The position numbers and the translations under genes are program-made. A stretch of 57,047 nucleotides of DNA from a virus (taxonomy: Duplodnaviria; Caudoviricetes): IMG/VR virus record IMGVR_UViG_3300021077_000161, positions 1 through 57,047 of that record; one strand, written 5' to 3'. Numbering within the stretch: position 1 is the stretch's first letter; each line of letters opens with the position of its first letter. This document shows, piece after piece, positions 1,878-56,660 of this stretch. Below the pieces are notes generated by a model that was not told the DNA's origin, ran no database searches, and was given only the letters and a program-made list of their open reading frames with translations.

Positions 1878-3085
1878 CCCAAAAATTCCCTATTTTATAT
1901 AAAAAGACTAATCTCGGAGCAATGCAGCAATGGAGAGTCTGGGTAGAAGAAGCTACAATTCATACCGAGTTTGGCCAAGTTAACGGAAAGCTACAAACAA
2001 CAAAGGATACAATTTTAGAGGGGAAGAACGCTGGTAAGGCCAACGAAACGACTGTAATTGATCAAGCAGAAAAAGAGGCCGCTAGCAAGTTCCAAAAACA
2101 GCTTAAAAAGGGGTATTGCACATCGGAAGAGGATGCCTTAGCCAATAAAACGGATGCCGTTATTGAAGGTGGTATTTTTCCAATGCTTTCAATAAACAAA
2201 AGCCACCCCAAAGACCCTATCTTAAACAAATATTTAAAGTTTCCTTGTATCGTTCAAGCAAAACTGGACGGAGTATGCTGCATTGCAATGATTAAAGATG
2301 GTAAAGCTACTCTTTGGAGTCGTACTAGAAAATCTATTAAATCAATGCCGCATATTGTTGAAATTTTAGAAAGCAAATTCGGGGATAGGGGATACTTAGT
2401 TTTACACGGAGAGTTATACAACCACGATTACTGTGATCGTTTCCAAGATCTGATTTCAATTATTAGAAGCGACGAACCAGACGAAGAGGGGCTTTACAAA
2501 GAAGTTCAGTTTCATGTTTATGACTGTCCACAATCAGAAGAATTCAACATCGCCTATGAATCACCATATGAAGACAGATATCATGCCTACAGAACTCTGC
2601 TTGGTAAAACTGACAAGGGCAGTGTTTTACAATCAGTAAAAGGGTATTGGTGTGACAATCTACAAGAGCTTTTAACTTATTATGAAGGGTTTCTTTTAGA
2701 TGGGTACGAAGGGAGCATGGCAAAGAATGCTAGGGCTCCTTATGAAGCTGGGAAGAGAAGCTCAAACATTCTTAAGATGAAAGAATTTCAGGATGGCGAG
2801 GCTCTTATTGCAGGTATGGAAGTTGGTCGTGGTAAAGAATGTAACGCAGCGGCAAAGTTTGTTGTGCAATACAGTGTTGTTGATGGTGTCTGCGTTCCTC
2901 CAGCACAAGGCAAGGTTGTATATGAAGCAAAGCCTAGAATGAAATGTTCTTTTAAAGACAAGGTTCGGTATCTTAAAGAAAAAGATGCAATTGTTGGGAA
3001 AATAATCACCTTGGTGTTCAAGAGGTTTACTGACGACAACTCACTTTATATTCCTACAGGAAAAAGCATACGAGACTATGAGTAA
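1874..3085 (+). CDS. lig: ATP-dependent DNA ligase with N-terminal WGR-like domain
   Basis: KLDG adenylation motif, GELY, FHVYD, EGSM, KRSSNILKMK; C-terminal OB fold. Confidence 0.9.
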   Translation: MTQKFPILYKKTNLGAMQQWRVWVEEATIHTEFGQVNGKLQTTKDTILEGKNAGKANETTVIDQAEKEAASKFQKQLKKGYCTSEEDALANKTDAVIEGGIFPMLSINKSHPKDPILNKYLKFPCIVQAKLDGVCCIAMIKDGKATLWSRTRKSIKSMPHIVEILESKFGDRGYLVLHGELYNHDYCDRFQDLISIIRSDEPDEEGLYKEVQFHVYDCPQSEEFNIAYESPYEDRYHAYRTLLGKTDKGSVLQSVKGYWCDNLQELLTYYEGFLLDGYEGSMAKNARAPYEAGKRSSNILKMKEFQDGEALIAGMEVGRGKECNAAAKFVVQYSVVDGVCVPPAQGKVVYEAKPRMKCSFKDKVRYLKEKDAIVGKIITLVFKRFTDDNSLYIPTGKSIRDYE

Positions 3086-3086
3086 C

Positions 3087-3115
3087 TTGACAAATGATTG
3101 AGTTAGGAGCACAAT
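3087..3115 (+). promoter_or_regulatory. Sigma70-like promoter, near-leaderless start at 3122
   Basis: TTGACA-N17-CACAAT; ATG 6 nt downstream without SD. Confidence 0.55.
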
Positions 3116-3121
3116 ATCTAT

Positions 3122-3535
3122 ATGCCACTATCGAAAGGTAAACGACTAGCTATTTTGAAGGCAAGCGAGCTTAAAAGCCAAGAAATTTCTTCATCAGAAG
3201 ATGCTCAAAACTTTCAAAAAGATTACAACGAAATAATTACAGAATTAAACGAAAAGATTGAAAATAGGCTAGACAGTTTTACAAGCGAAGCAATTCCTAT
3301 TTTGAGAGAGGCATATCCATCGCGCCCTAGTGGGATTTTAGTAGTAATAAAAGAAGAAGTAGACAGAATTAGAGGACTTGCTCAAGAAGCAATGACTAAT
3401 TTAGAAGTAATCAAATACGCTCCTTTTAGGCAATGTGCGTCAGAGTGTATAAAAGATATTGTTGATATTTGTACTGAATCTATAATTAAACAATGCATAA
3501 AAGCAGATCTTAGAGCTGGAGTTAAGCAACAATGA
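3122..3535 (+). CDS. Hypothetical helical protein
   Basis: 137-aa ORF after promoter. Confidence 0.6.
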   Translation: MPLSKGKRLAILKASELKSQEISSSEDAQNFQKDYNEIITELNEKIENRLDSFTSEAIPILREAYPSRPSGILVVIKEEVDRIRGLAQEAMTNLEVIKYAPFRQCASECIKDIVDICTESIIKQCIKADLRAGVKQQ

Positions 3536-4017
3536 CACAATACAGAGCTTTAGGCAATGAAGAACTCTTAAGGGACGGAGATGAGTGTCGTTATCTTTCA
3601 AAAACAGAGTGGAAAAAGGTAGATCTATGGCCAACAGAAGAGCGAACTCCCCGATCCTTACCAGAATACTCTTTTCGTCGCAGAATTCACAGAAAAGGAT
3701 CGGCTAAGAAGAAAGAGATTGAGAAAGTTCTTTCAGTTGACGGATATCGACTGCTTGATATTGGAGAAGAAATCAAAGAAGGTGATGAGTGGAGCAATCA
3801 TAATGGCAAAATATGGGATTTAACTGTCCTTGCTGGAGATAAATACAAGAGATTTCCTAATCAAATTTATCGTCGCAAGATGGATTCCTCAGAAGGACTT
3901 ACGTTCCTGAATGAACTAAAAACCTTGATTGAAAAATATAAAGACACTCCAGAAGTAGTTGCCCCTCTGTATAAACAATTGGTTGCGACCCTTACCCTTG
4001 TTGGTGAAAATGTCTAA
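3532..4017 (+). CDS. Protein with two copies of the dispersed YRxLxxGExIxxGD..W..YRR domain
   Basis: YRALGNEELLRDGDE..W..FRRR and YRLLDIGEEIKEGDE..W..YRRK. Confidence 0.7.
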   Translation: MTQYRALGNEELLRDGDECRYLSKTEWKKVDLWPTEERTPRSLPEYSFRRRIHRKGSAKKKEIEKVLSVDGYRLLDIGEEIKEGDEWSNHNGKIWDLTVLAGDKYKRFPNQIYRRKMDSSEGLTFLNELKTLIEKYKDTPEVVAPLYKQLVATLTLVGENV

Positions 4018-11994: not shown

Positions 11995-12466
11995 GCCAGG
12001 TAATTATAGCCGCTGAAACAATACTTGCTATTGCTGTACCAGCTAAGGTAAAGATTCGATTGCGACGTTCTTTTTTGGCTACCCTGGCTTCTTCTAGAAC
12101 AGCTTCTGCTTTTATTCTGGATTCTTCTAAGACGGCTTCGGCTTTTAACTTAGCTTTTTCTAAATCTTCTAGTTCTTGAGTATCGTGCTTATTCGCCTTA
12201 CACTCTAAACTGCTAAGCCTAGTTCCATAATTCGATGTGTCAATTCTCATGGTTGTAAACCCGGCAACCATACCTTTTATATCAGCCTTCATGTCCTCGA
12301 ACCCAACATTTAAGTTGTCTACAGCCTCTGCTACTCTACCCAATATTGGTAACATTTGAGTTGTTTGCATCTCTAATCTCCCCAAACGTTTTATTGTATC
12401 TGACACAATAATTGAGTTAGTGTCTGAACTTTTGTCCTCTGACGTGCCTATCCGGTTGACGCCCAT
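11981..12466 (-). CDS. Coiled-coil protein with C-terminal TM helix; first 8 aa (MGVNRIGT) supplied by the TnpB element end
   Basis: ATG overlaps tnpB TAA; same 8-aa start as 43985-44188. Confidence 0.7.
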   Translation of the reverse strand: MGVNRIGTSEDKSSDTNSIIVSDTIKRLGRLEMQTTQMLPILGRVAEAVDNLNVGFEDMKADIKGMVAGFTTMRIDTSNYGTRLSSLECKANKHDTQELEDLEKAKLKAEAVLEESRIKAEAVLEEARVAKKERRNRIFTLAGTAIASIVSAAIITWLKLK

Positions 12467-13565
12467 TAGCTTACCCGGCTTTCGTCAACACGAGGCGCGG
12501 CACTGCGCCCGATCATGAGGATGTTCCGGGCCGCGTTTACATCGCGGTCGTGGCTTGCGCCACAATCAGAACACACCCACTCTCTTATTCCAAGACCTGC
12601 GATACCTTTCGGCCTCGACTCGGGGCGTGAGCCACAAGTCGAACAGGTTTGGGTTGTAAAACTTTCGTCGACTTCTAGAAACGTAGCTCCGTGCCTGCTG
12701 GCTTTGTAGCGGAGCATGTCCCTGAACGTTGACCATCCCGCGTCAAGCACGGACTTTGCCATCCGTGTCTTCGCCAGGCCAGCCGCGTTCACGTTGCCGA
12801 CGACGATCAATCTGTTTGCGTCGGCCAGTTTGGCTGACGCCTTGTGTAAATAGTCCTTTCGTTGGTTCTTTATTTTTGTGTGAATAGCCTTTGCTCTTTT
12901 AGAATTATTTGCTCTTTGAGCTATCGACAATTTCTCTTCGAGCTTTCGATAGCTTGTTGGGTTTTCAATCTTCTCACCGTCACTTGTTGTTGCTAAGGTC
13001 TTCAGACCTAAATCAACCCCAACTTCTCCAACGCCAGTAGGCAACCCACCAACCTTAACATAAAAACAAACCCACCATTTACCAGAAGAATCTTCAACAA
13101 AACAGCCACCTGTAGCATTACTGGGAAGTGGACTGCGCTTCGCGCCAAAGAACTTATAGGTATGACCTAGATAGGTTATTGAATTCATTGATACTTGTCT
13201 AGATTGTTCTTTAAAAGGCACCCAACCTAAAGATCTCTTTGATCCTGAAGACTTACGAAACTTTGGACATTTTTTGTGTTGATCACGGCTCTTCGAGAAC
13301 TGTTCATCAACGCACTGTACCGTCTGAGCATGTAATCCAAGCTCTTTAGAAGTTCCTTTAGTTAATTTTTGTAAATCAAAGTGGCTTGGCCATTTCTTGT
13401 AAGATCCTAGTTTGTAAATTTCTTGGACCTTCCTCTGCGAAGCAGTACAGAAATTCCAGACCTGATTGACCGCCCAAGAAAATTCTCGAAGAGACCTAGC
13501 TACCCTATGGCCCTTGAGTCTATATTTATAAGTTAAAATCATAATTTGTTACCTAACCGGAGAAG
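12443..13565 (-). mobile_element. Transposase-free TnpB cassette 1
   Basis: Left end CTTCTCCGGTTAG, right end TGGGCGTCAACCGGATAGGCACG identical to cassette 2. Confidence 0.75.
12466..13542 (-). CDS. tnpB: TnpB RNA-guided endonuclease (rearranged RuvC-II type)
   Basis: YKYRL N-terminus, GVDLGLK, VVGNV, VDESFTTQTCS, CxxC zinc finger, HDRDVNAA. Confidence 0.93.
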   Translation of the reverse strand: MILTYKYRLKGHRVARSLREFSWAVNQVWNFCTASQRKVQEIYKLGSYKKWPSHFDLQKLTKGTSKELGLHAQTVQCVDEQFSKSRDQHKKCPKFRKSSGSKRSLGWVPFKEQSRQVSMNSITYLGHTYKFFGAKRSPLPSNATGGCFVEDSSGKWWVCFYVKVGGLPTGVGEVGVDLGLKTLATTSDGEKIENPTSYRKLEEKLSIAQRANNSKRAKAIHTKIKNQRKDYLHKASAKLADANRLIVVGNVNAAGLAKTRMAKSVLDAGWSTFRDMLRYKASRHGATFLEVDESFTTQTCSTCGSRPESRPKGIAGLGIREWVCSDCGASHDRDVNAARNILMIGRSAAPRVDESRVS

Positions 13566-14047
13566 TATGTGCTATTGTAGAGAGCGTTTATCTTTAAAAT
13601 GTCTTGCTGCGAAATTTGTTCCGGTGAGTCGCAACTTTCTATATAACTAACCCCTAACAAATGACAAATTTCTTCAAGGGTTACTTGTAGCGTTAAGCAA
13701 GGGCTAGTTTCCGACTCAGGAAGCTCCACAATTGCTGATATAGGGGATTCGTCTTCTTTGTAGAAGGTAACGACTCCCTTTGTTGCGTTGTGTTGTTTGC
13801 AGTCCTTTATGTAGACAACGCCTTTAGGGGGTATCAGGCCTTCCCTTTCTATACCTACAGCTAATTTGTTTGTGGCCTCTTGCGGCTCCCTTAGTATCTT
13901 TTTGTGGCCCGCCGAGTTAACCTGATAGCAGCAACAGGAAAAAGCAGCTCTAAACCTAAGCCTTAAAATTGGGCTGTAAAGGACTGTTAAAGGCAGGAGT
14001 TCATTAGCCCAAATACGGCCAAGGCTATCTTGAGTAGTTCCAATCAC
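13553..14047 (-). CDS. Degenerate matrixin/metzincin-like protein
   Basis: EEICHLLG (HExxH-like, first His lost) and terminal SQQDILKINALY; stop lies in the TnpB left end. Confidence 0.45.
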   Translation of the reverse strand: MIGTTQDSLGRIWANELLPLTVLYSPILRLRFRAAFSCCCYQVNSAGHKKILREPQEATNKLAVGIEREGLIPPKGVVYIKDCKQHNATKGVVTFYKEDESPISAIVELPESETSPCLTLQVTLEEICHLLGVSYIESCDSPEQISQQDILKINALYNSTYFSG

Positions 14048-40771: not shown

Positions 40772-42865
40772 ATGTTTTTGAACTTAATTTCGCTTAAAAG
40801 ACTTACTTTAAACAATTTTGGCCCTTTTGTAGGAACACATGTGGTAGAGTTCCCTACATCGGGCCTTTGTTTAATAAAAGGAAAGGTTCTGGAAACAGGC
40901 GATGGTTCTGGATCAGGTAAGAGCTATCTACTAAAAGCTATTTCACATTTGTTTGGTGGATGCCCAGATCCTGCTACAGAAATTCAAAGTTGGTTTTCAG
41001 AAGAACCACCAGAAGTTTCAGCAATTATTGAAACTCCTAATGGAGAAATTACCGTAAAGCGTCGTAAGGGGCTTTCTATATCTGGGGCTAGTTACAAAGA
41101 AATTCTTAAAGGTAAGTCAGCCGAGCCAGAACTAGATAAAATCTTTGGTATAGATGAACGGTCTAGGGCTATCATAACTTATAGAGGACAGCGTCAGCCC
41201 GGTCTTTTTCTATCTTTGAATGATGAAAAGAAAAAGAGTTTCCTTTGGGGGCTGTTAGATTTAAGCCCTTACGAAAAGGTAGCTAAAGAGGCTCAAGATA
41301 AAGCGGGCAGACTTGAAGAAGAGGTAACGTCTCTAACTCAGCAAGTTAGTTTTATTTACTCGAATCTTGAAACAGCAAAGACGTCTCTTCAAAGGGCTGA
41401 AAAAGAACTTGAAGAAACTCCTGCCAAAGAATTTGACGCTACTAGTTGTAAAAAAAGAATTATTGAAATTAAGACCAACATAAAAAACCTTCAGTCTGAT
41501 ATAGAAGCCCTAAGAAAAGCCTCTCAGAATGAGCTGGATGCTGTTCTAGGAACGATTAAGAGTAAGTCTAAGTTAGTGTACCAAAAGCAGGAACCGATTG
41601 AAGTAACCGCTTTAAGATCTGAATTAGAAAAACAGCGCAAGCAGTTAGAGAGTTTAAAAGAGAAAGATGCTGCGCTAAGACTAGAAGCTGAGAAGAAGCG
41701 CAATGAGTTAAGAATAGTTATACAGGCCAATCAAAAAGATATTTCTAGAAAGCCTAAACTATTAGCAGATCTTGCCTCCGCTAAAAAGAGAGAAACCCTT
41801 TTAGTTGAACAAAAATGTTCTGAGTGTAAACGAGAGTGGGTCGGGGCAGAAGCTGAAAAGACTCTAGTTACTGTCAGAGAGTTTATTGAGTCAGCCAACT
41901 TTCAGCTAGAAACTATTGTGTCTATGGAAGAAAGCGTAAGGGAGAAAACTTTACAACTACAAAGAATAAAAGATCCTGAAGTTAGTCCGTTAACAAAAGA
42001 AACACAAGATAAGATTGTTTCTATTAACGCAGATATAAAAACAAAAGTAGAAGCCTTCGAGTCCAAGAAGCGTCAGGCGATTAACGTACTAGACCAAGAA
42101 GAAAAAACAACTAAAAAGCAGTTTCAAGATAAACTGGCATTAGATTTGCAAGAGTTTAGTAAAGAGGGACAATCTCTACAAGCTGAACTAGATCGCGATT
42201 TAAAAGATGAAAAAGACTTCTTGGAAGCTCAAGCTCAGCTAAAGGCAAAACATGCTGTAGTTGAAGAACGAAGAAAACAGGTATCTAATACTGAGGTTTC
42301 TTATAAAGACACTTTGAGTAGGAAGCTTGAGGTAGAAAAAGCTTGGAATCTAGAAAAAGACATAATTGCCCTAGTAGGCCGTAGTGGGTTCTTAGGGACA
42401 ATAATTGAAGAAGTGTTAAATGAAATTTCTTCTGTGGCAAATGATATATTGGGTCAAATTGCCAACGTGCGGCATCTTTCGTTGGATTTTGAAACTGAAA
42501 AAGTGTCTAAAACTACAGACAATACCCAAGTTAAAATTACTCCTGTTATTTACAGTAGAGGTCGTAGAGTTAGTTTGACTTCGGGTATTTCTGGAGGTAT
42601 GCAAGTGGCCATTGAGTTGTCCGTGGACCTAGCTGTAGGAGAGGTAATTTCTAGACGCAGAGGAACGTATCCTGGATGGATTGTTTTAGACGAATGCTTT
42701 GATGGATTGGGGAGTATTGCTAAAGAAGCGGTTCTTGAGATGTTAAAAAACCATGCTGGAGACAGGCTAGTTTTGGTTGTAGACCATGACGCTACGTTCC
42801 AAGCCCTTTTCGATACGGTTATAAACGTAGAGATGTCTGACGGAAAATCAAATATTGTGGTATAG
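40772..42865 (+). CDS. sbcC: SbcC/Rad50/gp46-like SMC ATPase
   Basis: Walker A GSGSGKS, coiled coils, CSEC hook, ISGG signature, IVLDE Walker B, VDH. Confidence 0.92.
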   Translation: MFLNLISLKRLTLNNFGPFVGTHVVEFPTSGLCLIKGKVLETGDGSGSGKSYLLKAISHLFGGCPDPATEIQSWFSEEPPEVSAIIETPNGEITVKRRKGLSISGASYKEILKGKSAEPELDKIFGIDERSRAIITYRGQRQPGLFLSLNDEKKKSFLWGLLDLSPYEKVAKEAQDKAGRLEEEVTSLTQQVSFIYSNLETAKTSLQRAEKELEETPAKEFDATSCKKRIIEIKTNIKNLQSDIEALRKASQNELDAVLGTIKSKSKLVYQKQEPIEVTALRSELEKQRKQLESLKEKDAALRLEAEKKRNELRIVIQANQKDISRKPKLLADLASAKKRETLLVEQKCSECKREWVGAEAEKTLVTVREFIESANFQLETIVSMEESVREKTLQLQRIKDPEVSPLTKETQDKIVSINADIKTKVEAFESKKRQAINVLDQEEKTTKKQFQDKLALDLQEFSKEGQSLQAELDRDLKDEKDFLEAQAQLKAKHAVVEERRKQVSNTEVSYKDTLSRKLEVEKAWNLEKDIIALVGRSGFLGTIIEEVLNEISSVANDILGQIANVRHLSLDFETEKVSKTTDNTQVKITPVIYSRGRRVSLTSGISGGMQVAIELSVDLAVGEVISRRRGTYPGWIVLDECFDGLGSIAKEAVLEMLKNHAGDRLVLVVDHDATFQALFDTVINVEMSDGKSNIVV

Positions 42866-42876
42866 TTGAAAGCATG

Positions 42877-44008
42877 CTTATCCGGTTGATGCCCACAGAA
42901 CCCAAATGATTATCACCTACAAATACCGTCTCAAAGGATCTCGCGTTGCGAGAACGTTGAGGCACCATGCATGGGCAGTCAACCAAGTGTGGAATTTCTG
43001 CACGGCATCCCAACGGAAAGCTCAGGAAATCTACCGTCTGGGTTCCACTAGTAAGTGGCCGTCTCGGTACGCTTTACAGGGTCTAGCCAATGGCACTTCC
43101 AAAGAACTCGGGGTACACGCCCAGACCGTTCAAGGTGCCTGTGAGCGCTTCGCGCGTAGCCGCGACCAACACAAGAAGTGTCCTAAGTTTCGTCGCTCTT
43201 CGGGATCGAAACGATCTCTAGGCTGGGTTCCCTTTCAAGAACAGTCCCGTCAAATCACGCCTTCTTCGGTAACCTACCTAGGACGCACTTACCGATTCTT
43301 CGGAGCAAAGCGGCGTCCGCTTCCTAGCAACGCAAAGGGTGGTTGTTTTGCCGAGGATTCTTCCGGGAAGTGGTACGCGTGTTTTCAGGTTGAGGTAGGT
43401 ACCCTTCCTACCGGCACCGGCCAGGTCGGAATCGACCTTGGGCTGAAAACCCTCGCCACTACTAGCGACGGGGAGAAGATAGCGCATCCGGCTTTCTTCC
43501 GAGCTACCGAAGAGAATCTCGCAATCGCCCAAAGGGCTCACAACACTTCCAGAGTCAAAGCACTTCATGCGAAGGCTAAGAATCAACGAAAGGACTACCT
43601 ACACAAAGTATCGGCGAAGCTCGCCGACGCAAACCGTTTGATCGTAGTTGGCAACGTGTCGGCATCAAAACTGGCGAAGACAAGCATGGCAAAGTCCGTA
43701 CTTGATGCCGGTTGGAGTATGCTGAGAGGGTTTCTTGCTTATAAAGCCAGTAGGCATCAAGCGACCTTCATCGAAGTCAATGAAGCATTTACGACCCAAA
43801 CCTGTTCCGCTTGTGGGGATCGATCCTCCGAGGGGAGGCCGAAAGGTATCGCAGGGCTTGGAATAAGAGAGTGGAGATGTTCAGCTTGTGGGGTGACCCA
43901 CGACCGTGATCGTAACGCGGCCCTGAATATCTTGAATCTCGGGCTGAGTGCTCAGCCTCGTGTTGACGAAAGCCGGGCCGCCTAATGGGCGTCAACCGGA
44001 TAGGCACG
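42877..44008 (+). mobile_element. Transposase-free TnpB cassette 2
   Basis: 42873-42895 complementary to 43986-44008; GC-richer than flanks. Confidence 0.8.
42906..43985 (+). CDS. tnpB: TnpB RNA-guided endonuclease (rearranged RuvC-II type)
   Basis: GIDLGLK, VVGNV, VNEAFTTQTCS, CxxC finger, HDRDRNAA; close paralog of 12466-13542. Confidence 0.93.
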   Translation: MIITYKYRLKGSRVARTLRHHAWAVNQVWNFCTASQRKAQEIYRLGSTSKWPSRYALQGLANGTSKELGVHAQTVQGACERFARSRDQHKKCPKFRRSSGSKRSLGWVPFQEQSRQITPSSVTYLGRTYRFFGAKRRPLPSNAKGGCFAEDSSGKWYACFQVEVGTLPTGTGQVGIDLGLKTLATTSDGEKIAHPAFFRATEENLAIAQRAHNTSRVKALHAKAKNQRKDYLHKVSAKLADANRLIVVGNVSASKLAKTSMAKSVLDAGWSMLRGFLAYKASRHQATFIEVNEAFTTQTCSACGDRSSEGRPKGIAGLGIREWRCSACGVTHDRDRNAALNILNLGLSAQPRVDESRAA

Positions 44009-44188
44009 GTTGGTGCCCTTACCGAAGCTGAGAATCCTAAGGTTAAGGAATATGCAGACCAGCGTCGTGAAGAAATGAAGAACCCGGTTGATGAACACAG
44101 TAAAAATTATCATGAACGAAGGTTAAATAAAAATAAAACTGAAGCAAAAGCGTCATTGATTAGACAAATTAAAGGAGAAACAGAATGA
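43985..44188 (+). CDS. Small hypothetical protein; first 8 aa (MGVNRIGT) supplied by the TnpB element end
   Basis: ATG overlaps tnpB TAA; stop overlaps next ATG. Confidence 0.6.
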   Translation: MGVNRIGTVGALTEAENPKVKEYADQRREEMKNPVDEHSKNYHERRLNKNKTEAKASLIRQIKGETE

Positions 44189-44535
44189 GTGTAGAAAAAG
44201 ACAAACGACAAAAGCAACTGGAAAAATGGGGAAAGAAACTTCCTGATGAATGGCGTCAAAACCAACTCGGTGCATCAACCCCAGACCTTTACAAGTCAAT
44301 TCTAAAATCAGCTATCAATATTGTTCAGCTGGCTATGGCAAAGGAATTAGATCAAGACTTAGCCAATCTAAAAGAACAGGTTAAAACAGCTGGGGCTCAG
44401 TATTCAGAAGGTGCCAAGCAAAATCATCTACAAATTGAGTTTTTGGTAGACATTTTGAGAGGCCGAGGAGAAGACGTTCCTGATCCAGAGGATTTTCTTC
44501 GTAAGGCAGCCAACGGTGAGATTGTTTCTGAATAA
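44185..44535 (+). CDS. Hypothetical helical protein
   Basis: AAGGAG RBS, 116 aa. Confidence 0.65.
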   Translation: MSVEKDKRQKQLEKWGKKLPDEWRQNQLGASTPDLYKSILKSAINIVQLAMAKELDQDLANLKEQVKTAGAQYSEGAKQNHLQIEFLVDILRGRGEDVPDPEDFLRKAANGEIVSE

Positions 44536-44544
44536 GGAGAAAAG

Positions 44545-44925
44545 ATGTCAGTAAAAACGATTAATAATAAAGTGGCCTGTTATCCGTTTGAGCCAGGGCA
44601 AATCACAGACATTAGTAAAAAGAAACTGGCTACAGTCACAGGGGAATCTAAGGTCGTAGAGCTTTTTGTTTGTTATGAGACAGAGCTTACCGACGGGCTA
44701 TATGTTGGTGAAAATGATGTGATTTTTGTCAAGACAGCTAGCATTAACTCTCCTTGGGCTAAAGAAAAATTTACTTTTCAAGGGGTAGAGGGTAGTGTAG
44801 AGTTTATTTTGGTGCCCATTAACGAAATTGTTCTAATTGATCGTAACGGAGCCTCGTGTAGTGAAGTGTGCGATGAATGCAAAGCTAAGGAAGAGGCAAA
44901 GAAAGAGCCCCCAAAGGTAAATTAA
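44545..44925 (+). CDS. Divergent GroES-like co-chaperonin
   Basis: KTINNKVACYP / VGENDVIFV / EFILVPINEIVLI parallel GroES KPLxDRVLV / VGDxVLF / EYLILxExDILA. Confidence 0.55.
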   Translation: MSVKTINNKVACYPFEPGQITDISKKKLATVTGESKVVELFVCYETELTDGLYVGENDVIFVKTASINSPWAKEKFTFQGVEGSVEFILVPINEIVLIDRNGASCSEVCDECKAKEEAKKEPPKVN

Positions 44926-44930
44926 AAGAT

Positions 44931-45140
44931 CTCTAGTTACTACAAAGGATACATATTCCAACAGGAAACCTTTGTAACTTAACGAAAAGATTAGGGTTTT
45001 CTTAATCTAACTCTTTATAAAAGTAGCCGAAAGGCAATGCTAGGTTAAAATAAGGGCAATTTAAATGCCCGAGCGGAGTGTCACGCTTCTTGTAGAAGAA
45101 AGCTGGTGAAGTTAAAATAGTAACTAACCGGATAGGCACG
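44931..45140 (+). ncRNA. Stand-alone TnpB omegaRNA-like locus (no tnpB ORF)
   Basis: GCCGAAAGG, CGAGCGGAGTGTCACGCTTCTTGTAGAAGAAAGCTGG and AACCGGATAGGCACG align with the 3' ends of both tnpB cassettes. Confidence 0.75.
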
Positions 45141-45142
45141 GA

Positions 45143-46117
45143 GTGGATAAAACGTTAGTTGTAGGTGATGTGCATGCGGTTCCACAGGAGCTTCCTGATT
45201 GTGAGGCTCTTGTGGAACTTATTGTCGATAGTGTAAAAAAGCATAAATGTGAAACCGTTTTGTTTTTAGGAGATAGCTTTCACACTCACGACATTTTGAA
45301 TAGTCGCGTTATTGATTTTTGGCTCAGAGCGTTTAAAAGAATGTGTAGTAGTGGGGTTAACGTTATAACCATTTGCGGCAATCATGACCAGCTCACTCCT
45401 ACAATCAGAAGCCCTCATGCGCTAGAAGCTTTTAAAAATTCGTGCATCGTTGTTGATTCTCCAATTCAACATAACGATTGCTGCTTTATGCCATACTATT
45501 GGAACCCGGAAGAGTTTGTAGAAGAAGCAGTAAAGCTAAAAGATCAAAATCCAGATGTAGACACTTTGTTTTGTCACCAGACCTTTATGGGAGTAGGATA
45601 CCTGTCTAAAGACTCTGTAGAACCTTCTGCTGTGCCGTTTAAACGTGTCTTAAGTGGCCATATCCACACTCCTATGAAGCTAGGTAAAGTGTGGTATATT
45701 GGGGCTCCTCGTTGGCGTACACTATCCGATGCAGACATAGAAACAAGAAACCTGTATGTTTTAGAGCAGGGCAAAGCTCCTGTAGCAATCCCTACAAATA
45801 CACATTGTGTTAAAATTTATAAGTTTGAGGATTCTGAAGAACAACCTCTTAGCATTAACTTGACTCAAGACGAATTAACTAGGTCTGATATTAGAATAAC
45901 CATAAATGGTAGCTCAGCTTACATCTCTAAACGTATGCTTGAGTTAAAAGCACAATACAACGCAAAGTGTCGTGGGGTTCCTATTAGAAATAAATTAGCC
46001 AAAGCCTCAGAGTCAGAAGGTATTCAAAACGCCTTTATTCGCTTTGGAAGTAATTTCAACCCACCGAATGGAACAGATAGAGAGTTTTTGTTGAAGGAAA
46101 CTTATGGAAGAATGTAG
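45143..46117 (+). CDS. sbcD: SbcD/Mre11/gp47-like nuclease
   Basis: GDVH, GDSFH, GNHD, CHQ, SGHIH, YIGAP; near sbcC. Confidence 0.9.
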   Translation: MDKTLVVGDVHAVPQELPDCEALVELIVDSVKKHKCETVLFLGDSFHTHDILNSRVIDFWLRAFKRMCSSGVNVITICGNHDQLTPTIRSPHALEAFKNSCIVVDSPIQHNDCCFMPYYWNPEEFVEEAVKLKDQNPDVDTLFCHQTFMGVGYLSKDSVEPSAVPFKRVLSGHIHTPMKLGKVWYIGAPRWRTLSDADIETRNLYVLEQGKAPVAIPTNTHCVKIYKFEDSEEQPLSINLTQDELTRSDIRITINGSSAYISKRMLELKAQYNAKCRGVPIRNKLAKASESEGIQNAFIRFGSNFNPPNGTDREFLLKETYGRM

Positions 46118-46119
46118 TA

Positions 46120-46320
46120 ATGCTTAAAAAAATTGAAAATGGCGAATTTGTTCAAGATGAAGACAGAAAGAACGTTGTTGTAGTTATTTATGATAGCGAC
46201 ATTGAAGATACCATGGAAGACGTACAAGAAGCGTTAGATTCGATTGGGGCAGGTGTTCGAATTACCATTCTTGCCTCTGACAGAGAACGCACTGATTTTA
46301 TTTTTGAAAAGGCAAGGTAA
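46120..46320 (+). CDS. Small acidic hypothetical protein
   Basis: ORF in operon. Confidence 0.55.
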   Translation: MLKKIENGEFVQDEDRKNVVVVIYDSDIEDTMEDVQEALDSIGAGVRITILASDRERTDFIFEKAR

Positions 46321-56578: not shown

Positions 56579-56586
56579 GTAATTTG

Positions 56587-56660
56587 TCAGAGTGGGAAGA
56601 TTTGAACTTCCGACTTTCTGTTTCCAAAACAGAAGCGCTACCAGGCTGCGCTACACTCTA
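56587..56660 (-). tRNA. tRNA-Pro(TGG)
   Basis: TAGAGTG/CACTCTG acceptor, TCTGT-TTTGGAA-ACAGA anticodon arm, GGAAG-TTCAAAT-CTTCC T arm. Confidence 0.9.

Follow-up and report, generated by a model that had tools for sequence, protein, structure and literature searches.

Background

In transposons of the ISDra2 type (IS200/IS605 family), the omegaRNA, or right-end RNA (reRNA), that serves the TnpB nuclease has a scaffold which overlaps the 3' end of tnpB and runs to the right end of the transposon, the flanking DNA beyond supplying the guide; its pseudoknot involves bases just ahead of that guide. We describe here a scaffold of this kind that stands alone, without a tnpB gene, immediately upstream of an sbcD/mre11-like gene in a tailed-phage contig of 57,047 nt (Duplodnaviria; Caudoviricetes; IMG/VR record IMGVR_UViG_3300021077_000161). 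The window, as we call the stretch of DNA analyzed, is the whole of this contig, which has an estimated completeness of 34% and derives from a phage seen in peat metagenomes. It carries two resident tnpB elements, tnpB1 and tnpB2; the solitary scaffold is referred to as the orphan, and the ORF-free relatives found in other contigs as minis (ORF, open reading frame). The family resembles the ISDra2-type omegaRNA in the overlap with the tnpB 3' end, the extension to the right end and the guide lying in the flank, and departs from it in having terminal inverted repeats rather than subterminal hairpins, a Gly in place of the RuvC-II Glu and, in the orphan, no tnpB.

Two further groups of published elements are closely comparable. 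According to passages of Meers et al. (10.1101/2023.03.14.532601), palindrome-associated transposable elements (PATEs) often encode omegaRNAs that the TnpB of other elements must use in trans. Like PATEs as portrayed there, the minis are non-autonomous and ORF-free, keep the right-end guide scaffold and would need TnpB in trans; PATEs have IS605-type palindromic ends, a Y1 TnpA and no duplication, whereas the minis have 26-bp inverted repeats and 8-bp duplications. Also unlike PATEs, as far as those passages extend, the mini scaffold has had its coding-overlap stem replaced, and the window copy has no left end. In parts of Altae-Tran et al. 2023 (PMC10691335), TnpB branches associated with DDE transposases are described as having inverted terminal repeats around tnpB, solo tnpB genes that share ends with a transposase-bearing element, a tnpB 3' end within 250 bp of the transposon end and, in some clades, a RuvC-II Glu-to-Gly change with a compensating Glu and predicted activity. 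The present family matches those branches in its inverted repeats, in ends common to a transposase element and in the Glu-to-Gly change. The DDE partners named in these sources are IS630 (PMC10691335) and ISL2, IS630 and IS1031 (a 2026 review, PMC13565253); IS1595, the partner indicated here, is not named as a TnpB partner in the text portions of either, and the supplementary tables of PMC10691335 may list it. A literature search by title or abstract retrieved no report linking IS1595 with TnpB, and the pertinent passages of PMC10691335 mention no protein-free, guide-only derivatives, unlike the minis here.

From these portions of the literature, protein-free omegaRNA elements for use in trans, and DDE-linked TnpBs with inverted repeats, are already in print. 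New are a naturally trimmed scaffold that recurs with compensating hairpins; an IS1595-type context of inverted repeats and duplications, in which guide-only minis outnumber tnpB genes (12 versus 3 in one contig, G004); and a phage copy devoid of a left end that abuts the start codon of an Mre11-like nuclease.

Identity of the orphan scaffold

A preliminary description, made from the letters of this DNA alone, had placed a protein-free, streamlined omegaRNA at 44931-45165 and pointed to sequence blocks shared with both tnpB 3' ends. Those blocks are all present where it located them, and 45025-45140 is almost certainly a genuine homologue of the omegaRNA scaffold at both resident tnpB 3' ends. 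The scaffold is thus real, shortened and of the same family; homology begins only at about 45025, the preceding 185 nt being dissimilar to any part of the elements, and that account had missed both the recurrence of the mini type and its IS1595-type ends. The elements compared are as follows.

45025-45140 (+): orphan mini omegaRNA scaffold, 116 nt, without an ORF of its own; assigned from colinearity with protein-free minis elsewhere, covariance-model (R1) score and minimum free energy (MFE) fold
42873-44008 (+): tnpB2 element; ORF 42906-43985; omegaRNA region 43836-44008; ends CATGCTTATCCGGTT / AACCGGATAGGCACG
12443-13569 (-): tnpB1 element; ORF 12466-13542; omegaRNA region 12443-12615

The terminal 15-mer AACCGGATAGGCACG occurs exactly three times in the window, at 12443-12457 (-), 43994-44008 (+) and 45126-45140 (+), and a fourth copy, inverted and with 2 mismatches, forms the left end of the tnpB2 element at 42873-42887; four such matches were reached in 0 of 100 shuffles. 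The 9-mer GCCGAAAGG is exact at 12605-12613 (-), 43838-43846 (+) and 45026-45034 (+), a recurrence that taken alone is not above chance. Covariance model R1, built on 73 model positions from 15 relatives, none of them from the window, scored the orphan (45069-45140) at 54.6 bits over its full length (rough E 5e-16) and the resident tnpB2 and tnpB1 ends at 81.1 and 77.4 bits, respectively; the next match in the window outside an element reached 8.3 bits. A search of the scaffold against Rfam returned no family, either at the gathering threshold or at E 10. The orphan recurs letter for letter in contigs of two additional DNA runs, which belong to other studies (X5, covering 44602-45111 and 45139-45275; X6, covering 44897-45128).

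Two features that ordinarily define such elements are absent. No tnpB overlaps or adjoins the orphan, the nearest one ending 1040 nt upstream, and no left repeat accompanies it, so that the pair of ends characteristic of a miniature element is found in relatives from G004 and L101 and not in the window copy. When the left part and left repeat of the minis were sought in the 185 nt upstream of the scaffold, local alignment scores did not exceed shuffle means. As no left end is recognizable, the window copy is a mini element reduced to its right end and immobile.

Conserved structure and pseudoknot

Structure was assessed on an alignment (A3) of 15 distinct full-length tnpB 3' ends from viral and genome collections. 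The modules recognized in the orphan are these.

45026-45054 (+): 5' block; GCC-GAAA-GGC hairpin, TAGC/GCTA stem (45024-45027 with 45040-45043) and AATAAG (45049-45054)
45054-45070 (+): replacement hairpin GGGCA-ATTTAAA-TGCCC, at the site of ~70 nt of zinc-finger/RuvC-III coding sequence in full-length copies
45072-45087 (+): P1 hairpin; A72-T87, G73-C86, C74-G85, G75-C84; loop GTGTC (45078-45082) is the 5' strand of the pseudoknot
45088-45099 (+): P2 hairpin TCTT-GTAG-AAGA; the third pair covaries in relatives
45103-45131 (+): P3 (CTGG with CCGG, one G-U) around the variable P4 (AGTTA-AAATAG-TAACT), the latter present in the predicted fold
45126-45140 (+): right-end terminal inverted-repeat 15-mer, 15/15 identical to both tnpB right ends; GGCAC (45135-45139) is the 3' strand of the pseudoknot

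Over this alignment, 96.6% of cells in the family structure are paired and two-sided changes are seen at 14 pairs, values reached by 0 of 500 shuffles; shifting the partners by 1-3 columns lowers pairing to 34-40%. The pseudoknot, which the preliminary description had drawn between AGTGYY and the terminal GGCAC, is borne out: its partners are the AGTGYY of the P1 loop and the five bases preceding the terminal G, and the helix (columns 116-120/192-196) is 100% paired in the 15 relatives with two-sided changes at 3/5 pairs, GTGCC/GGCAC giving way to GCGTC/GACGC, GTGTT/AACAC or GTGTA/TGCAC. The orphan pairs GTGTC with GGCAC, one G-U included. P1 is likewise 100% paired in relatives, with compensatory changes at 4/5 pairs; both sides of the third P2 pair (A3 columns 128/135; T90-A97 in the orphan) have changed in 9 of the 15; and P3, which in the full-length family joins CCGG with CCGG, shows compensatory changes in L050 and L099 (CTGG/CCAG). 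P4 of the orphan is a different, perfectly paired AT-rich stem, AGTTA/TAACT. The 5' block is nearly invariant in the 15 full-length ends, third codon positions included, and is kept by the minis, the TAGC/GCTA stem recurring also in the sister copy L099.

Of the 3' module, 17/18 pairs form in the orphan, the unpaired position being G76/A83 at the top of P1, and its MFE fold holds all modules (z = -2.38). Two other pairings were considered for the full-length scaffold. A long-range helix (columns 42-47/90-96) was dropped on account of non-compensated third-codon changes, judged by eye; an alternative offered by RNAalifold, joining columns 43-46 with 192-195, was set aside, as the segment is missing in minis and the pseudoknot explains the covariation.

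A recurrent mini lineage

Protein-free scaffolds with the same deletion boundaries as the orphan occur in G004, G003 (L099), L101 and L085. The orphan's architecture recurs in an ORF-free 235-bp element located upstream of a tnpB gene in G004: from 5' to 3', the left repeat CATGCTTATCCGGTTGACGCCCAATG is followed by some 90 nt of unrelated composition to these blocks, then by GCCGAAAGG..AATAAGG, by a short hairpin, and by P1, P2 and P3/P4 up to the right repeat. That contig contains 15 R1 modules, 3 on tnpB genes and 12 protein-free, and its minis measure ~235 bp with 26-bp terminal inverted repeats. The AT-rich mini L099 shares its contig, G003, with a full-length tnpB (L050). Of the 6 viral contigs examined, 3 (the window, G003 and G004) have protein-free modules alongside full-length tnpB.

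Five distinct mini scaffolds are colinear. In each, ~70 nt have given way to a hairpin of 5-6 bp, leaving a scaffold of ~116-120 nt; the exchange of the zinc-finger/RuvC-III coding stretch for a hairpin, already noted in the preliminary description, is confirmed at 45054-45070. The hairpins at the replacement site differ in sequence: GGGCA..TGCCC in the orphan, GGTAG..CTACC in L099, GGTCCA..TGGATC in G004, GGTTCC..GGAGCC in L086 and, as a fifth version, GGTCCGC..GCGGATC. The P2 loop TGTAGA is common to the minis and the orphan and occurs in 0/15 full-length copies. At the terminus and pseudoknot, in each of the three contigs that have both forms, the mini carries the variant of the resident tnpB, namely GGCACG (window), AACACG (G003) or AGCACG (G004); in G003 the mini and resident tnpB have in common a derived terminus, GAAACACG, with the matching loop GTGTT. 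The internal 57 nt of the orphan are identical to the G003 mini L099 at 47/57 positions (82%) and to the tnpB1 and tnpB2 ends at 36/57. As these internal 57 nt are nearest to L099, and as the deletion boundaries and the TGTAGA loop are the same, the orphan by all sequence indications descends from the mini lineage and not from the in-situ collapse of a third tnpB.

Decayed copies are also found. In G004 one mini (L088 560-809) is without its outer left repeat and another survives as a ~70-nt right-end stub (L088 1200-1270); the left end of the L086 mini is short of its outer 15 nt. Such truncated and end-less copies argue that solo ends are ordinary decay products.

Several further observations concern the minis. 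A right end close to 45088-45140 of the orphan (6 differences, one deletion) lies between unrelated AT-rich flanks in a 2073-nt RNA-library contig (X16, depth 12) and a DNA contig (X6), and therefore represents another AT-rich member in the same habitat. The GC-rich minis (L039 2226-2340, others of G004, L086 and L101) keep in their left part CTTGACAGCCACCTGGAATTTTGCTTTTCT, a TTGACA followed 17 nt on by a T-rich box, which may be the minis' own guide-RNA promoter; nothing like CTTGACAGCCACCTGGAATTTTGCTTTTCT is found at the window orphan. In L099 a 72-codon ORF (1741-1959, -) runs from phage sequence through the mini and ends ..PLVEESWVS, to be compared with the TnpB C-terminus ..PRVDESRVS; the old tnpB frame is therefore still open across this mini, and the ORF is probably not a real gene. 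At L039 2385-2475 (G004) a mini, with its 8-bp duplication GAAGGCTT, is inserted in the outer left repeat of a full-length tnpB element, and the left end of that element is therefore its would-be guide.

IS1595-type ends

Perfect 8-bp direct repeats flank six of nine G004 minis (CACTGGAG, GAAGGCTT, AAACATAA, AAGAGACC, CAACAAAG and the ATCGGGAT case); the other three have none. The same contig holds a 2250-bp element (L086 1873-4122) with the terminal repeats of the minis and tnpB elements, CATGCTTATCCGGTT ends and an 8-bp duplication, ATCGGGAT, which encodes an IS1595-family DDE transposase (PF12762 at 1.3e-34, plus a zinc ribbon). The terminal inverted repeat shared by tnpB elements, minis and the IS1595-family element reads C[A/G]TGCTTATCCGGTTGA.., and the left end of tnpB2, CATGCTTATCCGGTT, repeats its right end, AACCGGATAGGCACG, in inverted orientation. 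Since these ends are common to an IS1595-family transposon and the minis have 8-bp duplications, the tnpB elements and minis appear on sequence grounds to be non-autonomous riders on IS1595-type ends. Membership in IS200/IS605 or IS607 was rejected, given inverted repeats of 15-26 bp and the 8-bp duplications of the minis; TnpA was sought by Pfam scans of neighboring ORFs.

The window has no PF12762 match, in a record that is only 34% complete. A scan for the exact 15-mer gave 25 loci, mostly chance matches or the ends of other IS1595-type elements or plain miniature inverted-repeat elements without omegaRNA (L024/L028, L029). Near an IS1595 fragment in G002 there is no matching inverted repeat, and the fragment is uninformative. 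No target duplication flanks any of the 6 full-length tnpB elements with a definable left end (window 42873/44008 and 12443/13569; L030; L032; L087; L039 2461-3600), possibly through recombination between copies or a different route of spread.

Insertion at the start of sbcD

The position of the orphan is described with reference to four features.

45143-46117 (+): sbcD/mre11-like phosphoesterase gene, GTG start; calcineurin-like (Pfam PF00149, 1.6e-09)
44545-44925 (+): upstream phage gene, 126 aa, homologous to a 117-aa ORF of G001
45141-45160 (+): would-be guide GAGTGGATAAAACGTTAGTT, spanning -2 to +18 of sbcD; deduced from its place, which, like that of the guide in TnpB elements, is immediately 3' of the right end
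44858-44865 (+): possible degenerate left 8-bp target duplication, GTAGTGAA versus GGAGTGGA at 45140-45147, 6/8 matching, a position chosen after inspection

In three of three relatives (G001/L079, L090 and L091; 46-55% identity) the start of sbcD and the stop of the gene before it overlap, with no intergenic RNA module, which argues that the orphan is an insertion. These homologues begin at the equivalent codon, and the gene preceding sbcD in G001 is a homologue of the 126-aa ORF of the window (29% identity, E 6e-14, with the 117-aa ORF directly upstream of sbcD). The window ORF has some 22 extra C-terminal residues that are missing in its homologues, that of L091 stopping soon past the ..RG position. 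The GTAGTGAA site falls where these homologues end, as would fit a decayed duplication and an insert of ~275 bp; GTAGTGAA and GGAGTGGA may, at a weak level of confidence, be read as such a duplication. If that reading is right, the left end has decayed and the right scaffold has not, a contrast that would speak for selection acting on the RNA module.

Between the last base of the scaffold (45140) and the sbcD GTG at 45143 lies the 2-nt gap given in the preliminary description. That the would-be guide starts 2 nt before the GTG follows from where the element landed, and its coverage of the sbcD start is simply the flank of an insertion and no argument for design. A single-protein search with SbcD recovered no relative from the viral collection; a metagenome scan recovered only two, with 55% and 47% identity, both too diverged to tell whether the site of the orphan guide is empty or filled.

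Possible function and rival explanations

Both resident ORFs are TnpB by Pfam (PF07282 and PF01385), are 75% identical to each other and align to the ISDra2 TnpB chains 8bf8/8exa (E 2.4e-30). They are full length, with the RuvC-I Asp, the zinc finger and the RuvC-III Asp, and Glu293, just ahead of the zinc finger, is invariant in the family. From its position this residue may be a relocated catalytic Glu, and nuclease activity rests on that assumed relocation.

Our preferred reading is that the orphan is an intact solo mini-omegaRNA which, if transcribed, would be loaded in trans by TnpB1 or TnpB2 and directed at insertion-free alleles, resulting in homing or marker exclusion; we assign this a probability of about 0.5. 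Its identity part, which draws directly on homology, structure, the mini lineage, the IS1595-type ends and position, is near certain, and its functional part somewhat less likely than not. What we infer beyond identity, that is transcription, loading, cleavage and benefit, might run as follows. A mini of the TnpB element family would have landed between the 126-aa gene and sbcD, its left end later becoming unrecognizable. The omegaRNA scaffold, which in this family runs to the last base of the right repeat with the DNA beyond as guide, could be transcribed from a weak -10-like site, or by upstream read-through followed by TnpB processing. TnpB1, TnpB2 or both would bind the mini RNA in trans, a step suggested by the intact scaffold elements and by terminal 15 nt identical to the resident tnpB ends, and the resulting nuclease complex would carry a guide matching the start of sbcD. 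The sole DNA it could cut would be an allele without the insertion, for example that of a co-infecting relative, and repair from the insertion-bearing genome would copy the module with its neighbors, amounting to homing, or to marker exclusion in mixed infections. The candidate transcription signal is as follows.

45016-45021 (+): TATAAA, a -10-like hexamer 4-5 nt before the scaffold, without a -35; a weak hint

The proposed outcome resembles the marker exclusion attributed to Seg and Mob of T-even phages in PMC13565253, wherein the insert-less allele of a co-infecting relative is cut and repair copies the insert and its flanks; recognition here would differ in relying on an RNA guide and a nuclease encoded elsewhere in the genome. 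There is a likeness also to TldR guide RNAs (PMC10705468) in a use beyond transposon maintenance, possibly gene regulation. TldRs, as the same source portrays them, are nuclease-dead, lie outside transposons and have guides matching distant promoters, whereas the guide here is the element's own flank and the TnpBs keep the RuvC-I and RuvC-III Asp and Glu293.

A number of results weigh against the preferred reading. Contigs of the phage from RNA libraries cover 44592-44974 and 45442-45594 and none of the scaffold, although such contigs cannot show RNA ends and their lack of cover proves nothing; a consensus scan of the plus strand gave no sigma-70-like promoter. The match to the guide and the 5' target-adjacent motif (TAM) for which the preliminary description looked to relatives did not materialize: the 5 nt to the left of each of 6 target duplications and 6 full-length left ends have nothing in common, leaving no TAM consensus among these 12 insertion sites; the guide 16-mer has no second copy in the window or in a set of 91 loci; and its 5 exact matches in the viral collection are all due to chance, none being a protospacer. 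The sbcD relatives (46-55% protein identity) diverge too far at the guide site, no insertion-free allele turned up in contigs of two DNA and two RNA-library runs, and no contig in these four runs joins across either the orphan or tnpB2. At the position of the ISDra2 RuvC-II Glu, 18 of 18 family members have Gly (..VVGNV.., residues 246-251). Finally, the orphan does not form the top pair of P1, and the good state of the module could reflect its recent arrival from an active mini lineage.

That last consideration belongs to the most serious rival, in which the orphan is an inert relic, the surviving and functionless right end of a mini that looks intact through recent arrival. We regard this as a substantial possibility, somewhat short of an even chance. 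The lack of a left end and of left-part homology, the failure of the scans to find promoter, target or TAM, the truncated and end-less minis of G004 and the broken P1 pair all agree with it. Equal neutral decay, however, would not be expected to remove the left end, if once there, while keeping the right 15-mer at 15/15 and 17/18 pairs, and the orphan sequence is identical in contigs from two further studies. The scaffold could alternatively act in cis as a 5' untranslated leader of sbcD, its folding, TnpB binding or processing lowering translation. Here the only Shine-Dalgarno-like AGG (45134-45136) is in the pseudoknot strand and the start codon in the guide, no alternative start codon or better ribosome site is available, and an insertion ending 2 nt from the GTG broke the translational coupling seen in three of three relatives. 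These arguments are purely positional and follow automatically from an insertion at that spot, and the sister mini in G003 lies ~50 nt from the next ATG; we consider the leader improbable.

Still less credible, to the point of being very nearly dismissed, is the in-situ decay of a third full-length tnpB element by deletion of its coding part. A left-end-like 17-mer (15/15 specified bases) does occur at 44084-44100, 1057 nt before the orphan end, to be compared with 1127-1136 nt for a full element; its outer 9 nt, though, mismatch, tblastn of 44009-45142 detects no TnpB remnant even at E 10, the interval is occupied by a conserved phage gene whose synteny with sbcD extends to G001 and L091, and the deletion boundaries and TGTAGA loop match the mini lineage of other contigs. 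A bolder extension of the preferred reading would have the orphan as a stand-alone, minimized guide-RNA gene, in effect a Cas-less one-spacer "array" that re-aims two TnpBs at the sbcD start of rivals in an RNA-guided marker exclusion, with the family at large constituting a TnpB/omegaRNA passenger system of IS1595-type DDE transposons. We think this unlikely, if less so than the cis-acting leader.

If the scaffold is used, guide and nuclease would be inherited as separate viral loci, a step between transposon omegaRNAs and CRISPR-like arrays, and RNA-guided competition between phages would be possible. The mini lineage itself amounts to a natural experiment on the dispensable part of an omegaRNA, with ~70 nt exchanged for a 5-6 bp hairpin in at least five sequence versions, and should be useful for trimming guide scaffolds. 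The IS1595-type ends raise the question of what purpose a guide-directed nuclease serves in a cut-and-paste element without a common TAM at its insertion sites.

Gene neighborhood and resident elements

A DNA search with 44100-46200 of the window against 50,697 phage records gave zero matches. The 697-aa P-loop protein encoded at 40772-42865 has a weak AAA_29 match and is possibly Rad50/SbcC-like; the 2.3 kb between its gene and sbcD is made up of the tnpB2 element, two small ORFs and the orphan. Other small genes occupy the sbcD-upstream junction in relatives, which looks like an insertion hot spot. The T4-late-type promoter motif TATAAATA was tried and rejected: it occurs four times in the window, always inside ORFs, and motifs of this type are not enriched before genes.

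Copies with 98% identity at a different site in contigs G001 and G002 served to place the boundaries of the tnpB2 element, whose GC content of 0.51-0.59 compares with ~0.38 for the phage. TnpB2 is 98% identical in G001 (L030) and G002 (L031), at 2501-3577, in the former of which SbcD is only 46% identical; this points to the element having recently spread horizontally between phages that are only distantly related. The inner part of its left end (42882-42898) is repeated as CCGGTTGATGaaCACAG at 44084-44100, 76 nt past its right end and with the outer 9 nt mismatched, and could be a remnant of an older left end. The tnpB1 element (12443-13575, -) is a mosaic, its first ~700 nt phage-like in GC content (0.34-0.45) and its last ~440 nt at 0.49-0.62, with identity to tnpB2 per 100 nt climbing from 52-72% to 68-77%, a pattern that suggests recombination or an RNA-level constraint on the 3' part. 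A tRNA-Pro (TGG) gene lies at 56586-56660 (-), close to the contig end.

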